A stretch of DNA of 64,000 nucleotides from an uncultured Mollicutes bacterium (GTDB taxonomy: Bacteria; Bacillota_I; Bacilli_A; RF39; UBA660). The position numbers and the translations under genes were made by a program. The notes under the pieces were generated by a model. That model saw only the letters and a list, made by a program, of their open reading frames with translations, made no database searches and was not told where the DNA came from. Each line of letters opens with the position of its first letter. Position 1 is the first letter of the stretch. The stretch covers positions 1,973-65,972 of the forward strand of contig URRF01000003.1 of assembly GCA_900550145.1 (NCBI GenBank), given 5' to 3'. Shown in pieces: positions 33,568-35,651 of this stretch.

Positions 33568-33897
33568 TTATTTTGATTCAATAACTTTTTCAAGAAAAAT
33601 TTTTTCTTCAAAGCCACCACGCTTTTTACTCTTTTCATCCGCAATTGTTAAAACATCATTTAAATCTCTTTTTTCTAATTTTGCTAATGCTTTTATTACT
33701 TCTAACATATCTGCTAACTCTTCTATTCGATCATTACCATTAGATTCAATTACTTCCTTATATTCTTCGTATAGTTTGTTTTCTAATTCTTTTTTATATT
33801 CTATTTCATTTAATGTCTTTATAATGGGTGTTTCACCTTTTTCTTTTATTATGTTAGGTATCTTATCTCTTACTAATTTATTATATATTCTTTCCAT
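33568..33897 (-). CDS. MazG-like all-alpha NTP pyrophosphohydrolase (PRA-PH-like house-cleaning family)
   Basis: N-terminal YNKLVRDKIPNII and acidic helix EELADMLEV, 109 aa. Confidence 0.65.
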   Translation of the reverse strand: MERIYNKLVRDKIPNIIKEKGETPIIKTLNEIEYKKELENKLYEEYKEVIESNGNDRIEELADMLEVIKALAKLEKRDLNDVLTIADEKSKKRGGFEEKIFLEKVIESK

Positions 33898-33909
33898 TTT
33901 TAATTCTCC

Positions 33910-34287
33910 TTAATAATTTTTTTTATTCGGTATTACTCCTCTAACACCACCACATGGATCATCAACATCACCTTTATATCTAGGAATTAAATGCATATGT
34001 ATATGCATAACACTTTGTCCTGCTGACTTACCGCAATTTAATCCAACATTATATCCATCAGGATTACATTTTTTATCTATATATTTTTTGCACTTATTTA
34101 ATAATTCAATTATTGCAATTTGCTCTTCATCAGTTATATCAAAAAAGGTTTCAGCATGTCTTTTTGTAATAATTAGTGTATGTCCTTTACTAACTGGAAA
34201 TTCATCGAGATACGCAATAGCCAAGTCGTTTTCAAATAATGGTTTTCTATTTGGTATAAATTGTTCGCAAAAAACACATTCTTTCAT
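33910..34287 (-). CDS. HIT-family nucleotide hydrolase/transferase
   Basis: Histidine triad HIHMHLIPR, an N-terminal CxxC, and an extended -10 (TGCTATAAT) just upstream. Confidence 0.85.
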   Translation of the reverse strand: MKECVFCEQFIPNRKPLFENDLAIAYLDEFPVSKGHTLIITKRHAETFFDITDEEQIAIIELLNKCKKYIDKKCNPDGYNVGLNCGKSAGQSVMHIHMHLIPRYKGDVDDPCGGVRGVIPNKKNY

Positions 34288-34335
34288 AATGATTACCTCC
34301 TATTATAATCATTATAGCATAATTAACACCGCTTT

Positions 34336-35223
34336 TTAATCATCTAACTTAAATTTAATATCATATTTTAATAAATCATTAATAATTGATTGTAAATCTT
34401 CTTCACCGCTATTAACTTCAGGTACAAAATATCTAACAATATTGTCATCAAAAATATCAATTACAGAATTTATAAATTCATCTTTCAATAAGTCATTGTT
34501 ACTAAAAAATGTATTTAAATCCCCAGTATGTGAAGTCCATCTTCCTGTTTGACTTTTTTTCTTACCCCAAAGATGAAAGCCACCAATATATGAAATATAT
34601 TCCTTGATATTATTATTAAAATTAATTATTTTTTTTAATTTAATATCGTCCATTTTTATAGCTTCAGCACTAAAAACTTGTGGATAATCAAGAACTAGTT
34701 TTAAATTTAAATTTCTCTTTTGTAATTCTTCTAAAAATTGAATTATTGACTTGCCATTTGAAATTATAAATTTTCCCCATCTATAAAATGTTCCACATCT
34801 ATTCTCAATAAAAATTTTTACATTCGGGAATTTTTTCAATATAATTTTCTCAAACTCTCCATATATATCAAAAAAATCCGAAAAAGTATTACAATAATCA
34901 TTAAAAGGCGGATGAATTTCTATTATCTCTGGAGATAAATTATTACCTATTAATTCAATTATAAAATTTGCAAACTCCTTTGCCCATTCTTTATTTTTCC
35001 ATAATTGAGGTACGTTATCTCTTTCTGATGATTTTAATTCAGGATATTTATTAATTAATTGATTATCTAATTTTCTTTTCATATGAGAATATTCAGTATG
35101 TAATGAGTATTTTCGTTGCGGATTAATTGAATCTTTATCAAAATTTCCTGCTATTTCATCTATGTTACTAATAACACCTGCTGGATATTTTTTAGAATGA
35201 TATGTTATCGGTATTAAATTCAT
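34336..35223 (-). CDS. 295-aa protein with an Nfo/UvdE-like (xylose-isomerase-type TIM-barrel) motif series; function unknown
   Basis: Ordered motifs IEIHPP, IFIENRCG, LVLDYPQ, GGFHLWGKKKS...SHTGDL and FVPEVN parallel the metal-ligand strands of the nfo in this window (HPGSH, LETMSG, CFDTCH, HVNDS..DRHANIG, ILETP). Start at 35223 (ATGA overlap with orf143). Confidence 0.35.
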   Translation of the reverse strand: MNLIPITYHSKKYPAGVISNIDEIAGNFDKDSINPQRKYSLHTEYSHMKRKLDNQLINKYPELKSSERDNVPQLWKNKEWAKEFANFIIELIGNNLSPEIIEIHPPFNDYCNTFSDFFDIYGEFEKIILKKFPNVKIFIENRCGTFYRWGKFIISNGKSIIQFLEELQKRNLNLKLVLDYPQVFSAEAIKMDDIKLKKIINFNNNIKEYISYIGGFHLWGKKKSQTGRWTSHTGDLNTFFSNNDLLKDEFINSVIDIFDDNIVRYFVPEVNSGEEDLQSIINDLLKYDIKFKLDD

Positions 35224-35651
35224 TTTGTCCTCCTTAATATTTTTGATTTTCCTACTGGAGTTTGAATATCCCAAAATACTAATTTGCCATTTGAATTCAT
35301 AGATATTGATACAGTATATTCATCTGATTTATCCCAATTTTCATCTATCGATTGAATATGGTTAAGTAATTTTTTAATTAGACTATAATCCATTGGAACA
35401 AACTGCTTGTCAAATATATTCTCACTAGGATTTAGATCAAATTTTTTTAATTTGTTTAATCTTATTAATTTGTCCTGATTAAATTGTTCTTGATTTACAA
35501 AATTTAGTTTAATATATTTCCACCATTCTTTTTGCCAACCGTATTCAATAGGATAATTTAAATAAATACTTTCTTGCGGTGATATATCATCTCTATTTAA
35601 ATCAGATACATCAAAGCATTTTCCTACACTTTCAATTATAAGTGATTCCAT
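35220..35651 (-). CDS. 143-aa hypothetical protein, translationally coupled to the TIM-barrel-like gene
   Basis: ORF with W/E/K-rich composition. The SD AGGAGG is 13 nt upstream. No recognisable motif. Confidence 0.45.
   Translation of the reverse strand: MESLIIESVGKCFDVSDLNRDDISPQESIYLNYPIEYGWQKEWWKYIKLNFVNQEQFNQDKLIRLNKLKKFDLNPSENIFDKQFVPMDYSLIKKLLNHIQSIDENWDKSDEYTVSISMNSNGKLVFWDIQTPVGKSKILRRTK

Follow-up and report, generated by a model that had tools for sequence, protein, structure and literature searches.

In a 64,000-nt stretch of contig URRF01000003.1 from an uncultured Mollicutes bacterium (hereafter the window), four co-oriented genes lie between rlmD and sepF. They code for a 143-amino-acid (aa) protein (orf143), a 295-aa protein (p295), a HIT protein (HIT125) and a MazG-like protein. 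We read this locus as the deleted 3' remnant of a mobile cassette that is a candidate nucleic acid-directed defence system, and regard the chances of this composite reading as about even. Its structural and evolutionary part is put forward with high confidence, and for the part in which p295 serves as a defence nuclease we would set the odds slightly below even.

All four open reading frames (ORFs) listed by a first-pass annotation are present on the minus strand: orf143 at 35220-35651, p295 at 34336-35223, HIT125 (125 aa) at 33910-34287 and the MazG-like gene (109 aa) at 33568-33897. The cluster is flanked by rlmD (36018-37232, minus strand) on one side and by sepF (33048-33467) on the other, and the identities assigned to SepF, DivIVA and the RlmD-type methyltransferase agreed with a Pfam scan. 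The reported ATGA overlap between the stop codon of orf143 and the start codon of p295 is real, and an AAGGAGG Shine-Dalgarno sequence lies within the 3' end of orf143. The G+C content is ~25% across the locus and no compositional break was seen. Neither orf143 nor p295 matched a model in Pfam, NCBIfam or PADLOC.

While orf143 had been annotated as an intact gene, it corresponds to residues 118-263 of a 263-aa ATP-grasp protein: in tblastn searches it aligned to the intact protein with 77% identity, over these residues only. A genome of another genus that carries the closest p295 homologue (98% identity; locus L022) served as reference for the junction, for synonymous divergence (dS) and for the identity profile. 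When the window was compared with L022 by blastn, the matches flanked a 1.93-kb gap (L022 5437-7364) and overlapped by 12 nt at window positions 35650-35661. In the junction alignment, the window follows the left junction of L022 up to AAATGAAAAAAT and the right junction from AAATAAAAAAAT/AGAGTCAC, and the join falls within an A-rich microhomology (AAATGAAAAAAT versus AAATAAAAAAAT). tblastn, blastn and the junction alignment agree that the locus is a remnant: a deletion took the DUF2797 gene, the gene for the 212-aa HIT-like protein and, from the ATP-grasp gene, the first 117 codons. This deletion between A-rich microhomologies removed the 5' part of the cassette and left p295, the HIT gene and the MazG-like gene behind the cassette leader. 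The vestigial start region of the DUF2797 gene (35636-35670, minus strand) holds a Shine-Dalgarno sequence, AGGAGG, at 35670-35665, a start codon at 35659-35657 and the deletion junction at 35650-35661, as placed by blastn and the junction alignment. The old Shine-Dalgarno sequence and ATG now open a 7-codon out-of-frame mini-ORF, and orf143 begins at an internal ATG. No other copy of the DUF2797 gene was found in the host genome.

The exact orf143 product was encoded on at least 23 contigs of independent samples (106 index blocks), and on these contigs the order is gerA-rlmD-orf143-p295-HIT-MazG-sepF-divIVA-ileS; the deletion is therefore not an assembly error. orf143 lacks the invariant K18, R64, G77, G78 and N109 of its ATP-grasp parent and carries the substitutions G132C and G141D at near-invariant positions. 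A complete ATP-grasp fold with its nucleotide-binding residues was not found in orf143, which retains residues 118-263. orf143 is a stub that, with the lost invariant residues and the two substitutions, is very probably dead as an enzyme, and function at the level of the system is probably lost in the window. p295, HIT125 and the MazG-like gene are intact behind the old leader and may have kept stand-alone activity, since p295 occurs solo in most lineages. Nine strains of the window's species, picked by exact identity of orf143, showed five nonsynonymous and one synonymous variable sites in p295 plus HIT125, and three and seven in rlmD; this gives a weak hint of relaxed constraint on p295 and HIT125 within the species, at a level of polymorphism that is too low for a constraint test and in a sample that is uninformative on orf143. 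In one of these nine strains p295 is cut to 228 aa (L125 3429-4115).

The intact form of the cassette was found in uncultured gut Firmicutes (Clostridium sp. CAG:762, CAG:302 and CAG:914, and metagenome-assembled genomes (MAGs) of 'uncultured Bacilli'), which carry p295 homologues of 74-98% identity. The gene order is constant there and runs DUF2797 (~310 aa), HIT-like (212-220 aa), a 261-263-aa protein, p295, HIT (125 aa) and MazG-like. This six-gene order is whole in nine loci (L008-L010, L014, L016-L018, L021 and L022), and parts of it are seen on contigs that break off early. The sequence upstream of it is of at least three different kinds. The proposal that the four genes of the window form a unit could not be upheld, as the conserved unit consists of DUF2797, HIT-like, ATP-grasp, barrel and HIT (plus MazG-like), of which the window keeps the 3' part after the deletion.

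The 263-aa protein has ~25 full-length cluster representatives at E<1e-30. Its fold was predicted with a predicted local distance difference test score (pLDDT) of 92.3, and the top Foldseek matches were all ATP-grasp proteins (MdnC, succinyl-CoA synthetase beta, Ddl, PsnB, HpeI and the ATP domain of rifampin phosphotransferase), so that, on its modelled structure, the intact homologue is an ATP-grasp protein. It is alike in fold to split or fused PPDK_N-type ATP-grasp phosphotransferases: HpeI (9GOJ) gave the best template modelling (TM) score, rifampin phosphotransferase (5HV6) was among the matches, and a relative (P0223) carries a PEP-utilisers mobile domain. In contrast to these enzymes the cassette has no swivel histidine domain, and the window keeps only the C-terminal 146 residues. 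The HIT and HIT-like proteins gave DcpS_C/CwfJ-type matches. For DUF2797 a cryptic GIY-YIG-like nuclease fold has been predicted (bioRxiv 10.64898/2026.10.10.758204); apart from this prediction, the literature on the domain held passing mentions. The DUF2797 protein of the cassette shows a plausible YVYL...KVGTA...R pattern, is predicted to be GIY-YIG-like and also contains a zinc ribbon.

The distribution of p295 points to recent horizontal transfer. It was found in 1 of 41 relatives and was absent from 40 of 40 sampled ones, eight species of the same genus among them, and it was present in four of the 301 genomes (214 genera) of the family; one of these four is the L022 genome, which belongs to another genus and yet has a p295 that is 98% identical. 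Between the window and L022, dS was 0.04 for p295, 0.03 for HIT125, 0.12 for the ATP-grasp remnant and 0.61 for MazG-like, against 1.30 (saturated) for rlmD. In a sliding comparison, identity to L022 was ~52-73% within rlmD, 83-100% between ~36057, which is 13 codons upstream of the rlmD stop, and ~33862, which is 35 nt inside MazG-like, ~81% over the remaining MazG-like gene and ~55% past its stop, and the edges of the high-identity tract were sharp. Its left edge, marked by the jump in identity, lies in the last ~13 rlmD codons (36018-36057, minus strand). What was exchanged is this segment, which starts in those rlmD codons and ends ~35 nt into MazG-like, rather than four genes inserted between sepF and rlmD as had been proposed.

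In same-genus genomes without the island, a MazG-like gene directly follows rlmD. MazG-like is therefore excluded from the island proper, which as delimited by these alignments consists of the leader, DUF2797, HIT-like, ATP-grasp, p295 and HIT genes. Because the island is 96-100% identical to that of an other-genus genome while the flanking rlmD is saturated, it was exchanged recently into the rlmD/MazG site, a hotspot; the exchange plausibly took place by recombination in the flanks. In one MAG a large serine recombinase (572 aa; L015 2722-4437) is encoded ~1 kb downstream of the MazG-like gene of the cassette. With this neighbour and a resolvase::p295 chimera (P0059) in mind, some cassette copies may move with serine recombinases.

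Upstream of the first gene lies a leader (35688-35793, minus strand) in which a TTGATT element (35793-35788), a 17-nt spacer and a TACCAT element with TG extension (35770-35765) precede a terminator hairpin (35714-35697). Its parts are ordered as a promoter-like site, ~45 nt, a GGAGGAGGAGG tract and an intrinsic-terminator hairpin with T-run. The pattern TTGAY-N17-TGgTAnnAT ... GGAGGnGGnGG-hairpin-T6 was found in seven loci and in 7/7 of them stands before the first cassette gene (for instance L022 5293-5398, L008 4493-4591, L018 7496-7599 and L021 7495-7597); these loci span at least three upstream flanks and a coding dS of ~0.8-1.4. A terminator scan gave 2 sites where 0.5 were expected. The leader belongs to the island and survives in the window. 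An Rfam search with the leader returned no family and one sub-threshold match to the L20 leader (E 0.14). A riboswitch was rejected because the region of ~45 nt from the -10 element to the terminator is not conserved in sequence. The leader could act as a damping or conditional terminator ahead of a possibly toxic operon.

p295 had been described as an Nfo/UvdE-like TIM barrel with ligand substitutions, and the predicted fold agrees with this. The AlphaFold2 model (pLDDT 96.5, predicted TM score 0.93) has eight strands, each ending at an invariant residue, and identifies p295, as far as a model can, as a (beta/alpha)8 TIM barrel of the xylose isomerase/endonuclease IV (Endo IV) type. Across 41 members of the family, down to 45% identity, H42, E102, H104, E140, N141, R142, D179, Q182, H217, W219, H232, E269 and N271 are invariant. 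All p295 motifs quoted from the window sequence were found, and these homologues keep IEIHPP, IENRxG, LDYPQ, HxWGK...HxGD and PEVN with no or almost no variation. A Foldseek search of the PDB gave 79 matches at E<=1e-3, including the Nfo structures 4hno, 1qum and 1qtw (probability 1.0); TM scores of 0.42-0.52 were obtained with tagatose-3-epimerase-like proteins, the Art22 isomerase, Endo IV of Thermotoga and of E. coli, MbnB and DgpB-C. Apurinic/apyrimidinic (AP) endonucleases of giant viruses were matched in a viral structure library, with TM scores in the same range.

The trinuclear metal site of E. coli Endo IV is formed by H69, H109, E145, D179, H182, H216, D229, H231 and E261. By motif order and predicted strand ends, the invariant H42, H104, E140, D179, H217, H232 and E269 of p295 are the presumed counterparts of these ligands, so that seven of the nine positions would be kept; by motif order, an invariant Gln takes the position of Nfo H182 and no equivalent of D229 was seen. 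The metal site is probably multinuclear. Like Endo IV (Nfo; PF01261; 1QTW/1QUM, 4HNO) and UvdE, p295 has a barrel with His, Glu and Asp residues at the C-terminal strand ends, and the order of its motifs (HPx, ExxxG, DxxH/Q, HxxD/W, xH, ExP/N) is that of the Nfo ligands; its size (~290 aa) is also similar to that of Endo IV. In contrast to Endo IV, it has an extra conserved N-terminal region (Y8, Y13, E23, YSLHTEY), shows no significant sequence or profile similarity and a TM score of only ~0.5, and belongs to the accessory genes that spread horizontally, unlike nfo, a core gene which the host has in addition. This canonical nfo (window ~10605-11381, plus strand; G000:C3:12577-13353) matches AP_endonuc_2 with E 4.8e-46 and has all classic Nfo motifs; p295 is therefore an extra enzyme and not the housekeeping one.

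Sequence-based searches did not detect this relationship. p295 gave no match to PF01261 or NCBIfam (TIGR00587) even at E 0.1, none to PDB chains in sequence and profile searches, and none in PADLOC or PHROG. When its alignment was compared with eight canonical Nfo proteins by hhalign, the probability was 0.2% and the local match, 19 columns at the IENRxG strand, was non-significant. A fusion relative (P0341) matched PF01261 at E 0.01, far under the cut-off. An MNIO/MbnB-like oxidase (DUF692) was considered for p295 and rejected: MbnB (7fc0) matched with a TM score of 0.47, but no partner or precursor genes lie nearby. O2 chemistry is also unlikely, because the hosts are taken to be anaerobes.

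The family of p295 comprises ~974 clusters at 90% identity, of which the named ones are called hypothetical and none shows a Pfam domain where it aligns to p295. A survey of 185,579 species genomes found p295 in 79 loci, and its hosts include Clostridia, Spirochaetia, Deferribacteres, Thermotogae, Desulfobacteria, Bacteroidales, Anaerolineae, methanogens, Thermococci, and MAGs of Asgard and Nanoarchaeota, groups that we take to be essentially all anaerobes. By tblastn, p295, the ATP-grasp protein and the HIT-like protein were not found in 50,697 phage genomes. Decayed copies are common: p295 is frameshifted in L068, L083, L086, L088 and L092, P0077 is a p295-HIT deletion fusion and P0121 an internally deleted ATP-grasp protein. 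Six p295 proteins of 402-434 aa (P0326, P0327, P0331, P0333, P0334 and P0338) have a conserved C-terminal extension of ~120 aa with the motif F.FRLPEEYL.NR.SGF...CDHRMTN..HGRIY[DE]D, for which no Pfam match was obtained.

A functional link between the barrel and a nucleotide-processing partner, suggested from the window, is supported by natural fusions. MazG-like::p295 fusions (P0341, P0345) show the NKLVRD(K/N)IPNII and E(E/I)xADxLEV motifs of the window MazG-like protein, and fusions of p295 to NUDIX domains (NUDIX_4, MutT/MutY-C type) and to metallo-beta-lactamase/RNase J-like domains also exist. p295::DUF2797 fusions form at least 50 sequence clusters that are 35-99% identical to the query from L026 and include Hungatella and rabbit-gut MAGs. 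Such fusions resemble UvrC-type dual-incision nucleases in joining two putative nuclease domains, one of them predicted to be GIY-YIG-like; they differ in that the second domain is a TIM barrel instead of an Endo V/RNase H-like domain, and the UvrB-binding and helix-hairpin-helix parts are absent. The adjacency of the other partners is conserved as well: a HIT-like gene (~220 aa) adjoins the ATP-grasp gene in Hungatella, L117 and the gut clade as well as in L118, where NUDIX joins the pair, and a HIT protein 52% identical to HIT125 follows p295 and HNH in a Bacteroidales MAG (L051). On L117 (1139-5830), a high-G+C metagenome contig, a MazG-like::ATP-grasp fusion of 506 aa that is 39% identical to the cassette MazG-like protein adjoins genes for a 233-aa HIT-like protein, a 213-aa membrane-like protein and RtcB. 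A Cohnella herbarum plasmid (NZ_CP051681.1; L116 6152-7801) codes for a 549-aa protein with a C-terminal p295-like barrel (hhalign probability 98.8%), which lacks equivalents of H104 and E140, has a 280-aa N-terminal domain and adjoins Wadjet JetABC. It was considered as an ATP-grasp::p295 fusion and discarded, as its N-terminus is not p263-like.

These fusions and the conserved adjacency speak against the fallback of the first-pass annotation, in which the four genes are two unrelated pairs, and make such pairs unlikely. A related explanation, that p295 is an ordinary sugar isomerase or epimerase and HIT125 and MazG-like are housekeeping neighbours, appears very improbable to us. Tagatose epimerase-like and isomerase structures are indeed among the top Foldseek matches, MazG-like stands alone after rlmD in relatives, and promoter-like sites in the window are at chance frequency. 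However, gene order is conserved in at least three contexts and the genes are tied by a web of fusions, the island moved as a block, and no sugar transporter or kinase partner is found among 109 neighbours. No sugar-operon setting was seen in these 109 immediate neighbours (65 loci), among which sugar transporters, kinases and dehydrogenases do not recur and AAA_15/21/23, HNH_4, SLFN helicase, AbiH, integrase and OLD-TOPRIM are the commonest families.

The same fusions may be read in terms of free nucleotides. MazG-like and NUDIX proteins would make monophosphates from (d)NTPs or modified NTPs and the barrel would process the sugar-phosphate, with the ATP-grasp and HIT proteins interconverting derivatives in a nucleotide-depleting or -detoxifying pathway. 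The repeated fusion of p295 to MazG-like and NUDIX pyrophosphohydrolases fits this, as do the equal resemblance of the barrel to sugar epimerases/isomerases and to Endo IV, the E-D-H-E tetrad of p295, which we take to be common to sugar enzymes, and the recurrence of the HIT-like/ATP-grasp/MazG-NUDIX module without p295. Yet links to nucleases are equally frequent (DUF2797 in at least 50 clusters, HNH in seven loci, RNase J-like metallo-beta-lactamase), and the additional conserved H42, H104 and H232 would be typical of trinuclear nucleases and not of sugar enzymes. We consider an action on free nucleotides to be rather improbable.

For HIT125 the earlier assignment was firm: it matched PF01230 with E 1.4e-25 (90 bits, cut-off 21.5), contains the histidine triad HIHMHLIP, and also gave matches to PADLOC ThsC2 (HIT family; 1.4e-14) and phrog_19494 (1.2e-29). 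It is the last gene of the exchanged island. The extended -10 site ascribed to it was found (TTAAAA-17-TGcTATAAT) but is a match and not evidence of a promoter, because such sites occur at chance frequency (24 sites versus 25.2 expected in shuffled sequence). The MazG-like gene follows after 12 nt; for this protein the tight linkage and the acidic motif stood, whereas the Pfam assignment did not reach threshold (PF03819, E 0.01, 16.5 bits versus a cut-off of 22). Its orthologue in L008 matched PF01503 (PRA-PH) at 0.002 and 18.8 bits versus 21.3. A similarity to all-alpha NTP pyrophosphohydrolases is likely from its sequence: with MazG, HisE/PRA-PH and dUTPase-like enzymes it shares an EExxE/D-type motif (EELADMLE), a helical nature and a length of ~110 aa. 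It differs in the N-terminal NKLVRDKIP motif, which marks a distinct subfamily fused to p295 or ATP-grasp, and in Pfam matches that stay under threshold. On its right-hand side the cassette is always followed by MazG-like, which here lies mostly outside the exchanged tract.

A defence setting had also been suggested, and distant p295 homologues do lie in defence-type neighbourhoods. In seven loci of Desulfobacterota, Bacteroidota and Firmicutes, an HNH_4 gene (325-344 aa) follows p295 after ~12-45 nt. In a Desulfonatronovibrio MAG (L048 399-2552) and a Bacteroidales MAG (L051 2155-4296), a 70-aa XRE helix-turn-helix (HTH) protein, the p295 homologue and a 325-334-aa HNH_4 protein are encoded in this order. 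The HTH proteins share the motif GLHRTYISDxERGKRS... and presumably resemble the controller (C) proteins of restriction-modification (R-M) systems; in L051 GmrSD_N lies upstream and a HIT gene downstream of the module. On plasmid pTBMP1 of Thermococcus barophilus, p295 is found near a McrBC-like pair of DUF2357-PD-(D/E)XK and AAA_5. Other neighbours include OLD-TOPRIM plus UvrD (Gabija-like), together with a PIN protein and an integrase, as well as PDC-S06, PDC-S41 (SLFN-type helicase), an MkoA-like helicase with DUF2726 and a KAP/PifA-like NTPase. The four-gene core of Hungatella is preceded by a WYL regulator. A small class I S-adenosylmethionine (SAM) methyltransferase (TehB/Methyltransf_11) without DPPY/NPPY motif follows p295 and HNH in four Ruminococcus/Clostridia loci (L062 3953-4582, L063 6200-6799, L077 2877-3464 and L079 11871-12500).

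Distant p295 genes thus share with controller-protein R-M and type IV systems (GmrSD, McrBC) a position behind a controller-like HTH and directly before HNH, the proximity of GmrSD_N and McrBC-like genes, a patchy distribution and frequent decay. They differ from restriction systems in that p295 has no recognised restriction nuclease fold, the linked methyltransferase lacks a DNA methyltransferase motif, and PADLOC gave no match. In PADLOC-DB 2.0, p295, orf143, the 263-aa protein, DUF2797 and MazG-like had no meaningful match, and only the HIT proteins matched a model, the generic ThsC2. The PHROGs likewise gave nothing for the ATP-grasp protein and DUF2797.

In the proposed mechanism, p295 would cleave DNA as a metal-dependent phosphodiesterase, perhaps where nucleotides are modified or damaged. 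Its partners would be another nicking nuclease (DUF2797, predicted to be GIY-YIG-like, or HNH) and a protein that binds or hydrolyses nucleotides (MazG-like or NUDIX). The module of ATP-grasp, HIT-like and MazG-like proteins would act on a nucleotide that serves in sensing or self-protection, and the intact cassette would most likely form a restriction-like defence or conflict system. In a more specific and less probable version, which we hold to be possible but doubtful, the complete cassette would be an anti-phage system of a new, multi-enzyme kind, whose two-nuclease effector of barrel and DUF2797 (HNH in other lineages) cuts invader DNA. The ATP-grasp/HIT-like/MazG-like module might then produce, detect or break down a nucleotide by which this effector is licensed or host DNA is shielded. 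The p295 barrel would in that case be a nuclease domain new to restriction-type immunity and common to bacteria and archaea.

Several observations weigh against the reading as a remnant of a defence cassette. The likeness of p295 to the Endo IV fold is moderate (TM ~0.5) and sugar epimerases score equally, the profile-profile comparison with Nfo gave no significant similarity, and the ligands were mapped by motif order and predicted strands instead of superposition. PADLOC has no model that fits p295 or the cassette, and the defence-island neighbourhood is circumstantial. The HIT, MazG, NUDIX and RtcB neighbours fit repair or nucleotide sanitation equally well. MazG-like is also found alone after rlmD in relatives, the window copy is truncated and may be idle as a system, and one strain has the shortened p295 of 228 aa (L125).

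The last explanation to be weighed is a nucleic acid repair or end-cleaning kit, a mobile accessory of small-genome anaerobes without a part in defence. In such a kit p295 would serve as an Endo IV-like 3'-diesterase/AP endonuclease, the HIT proteins as aprataxin-like deadenylases and the ATP-grasp protein as a kinase or ligase; DUF2797 would make incisions and MazG-like would clear damaged dNTPs. It is in keeping with the Endo IV-type fold of p295, the DcpS_C/CwfJ-type matches of the HIT and HIT-like proteins, the NUDIX_4 (MutT/MutY-C type)::p295 fusions and the position of RtcB beside the MazG::ATP-grasp and HIT-like pair in L117; WYL regulators, moreover, also control DNA-damage responses (PafBC). 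However, the host already has a canonical nfo, the distribution is very patchy with frequent pseudogenisation, and the controller-like HTH, HNH, GmrSD and McrBC-like neighbours of some copies suit toxic restriction genes better. We consider a repair kit, as a whole and in the roles given to its parts, to be unlikely.

No described system or family that matches p295 or the cassette was found in the literature and model libraries. The p295 family, with ~1,000 clusters in bacteria and archaea, is without a Pfam, NCBIfam, PADLOC or PHROG model, and the network that ties an Endo IV-type barrel to DUF2797, an orphan ATP-grasp protein, HIT proteins and a MazG subfamily is testable. The window calls for caution, as what looked like a four-gene system is a decayed copy that begins with the stub orf143. 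At the same time the locus records a recent block transfer into a fixed rlmD/MazG site between genera of uncultured gut Firmicutes. If p295 is a nuclease of restriction-type immunity, it would bring a new catalytic fold to the field and give DUF2797 a role.

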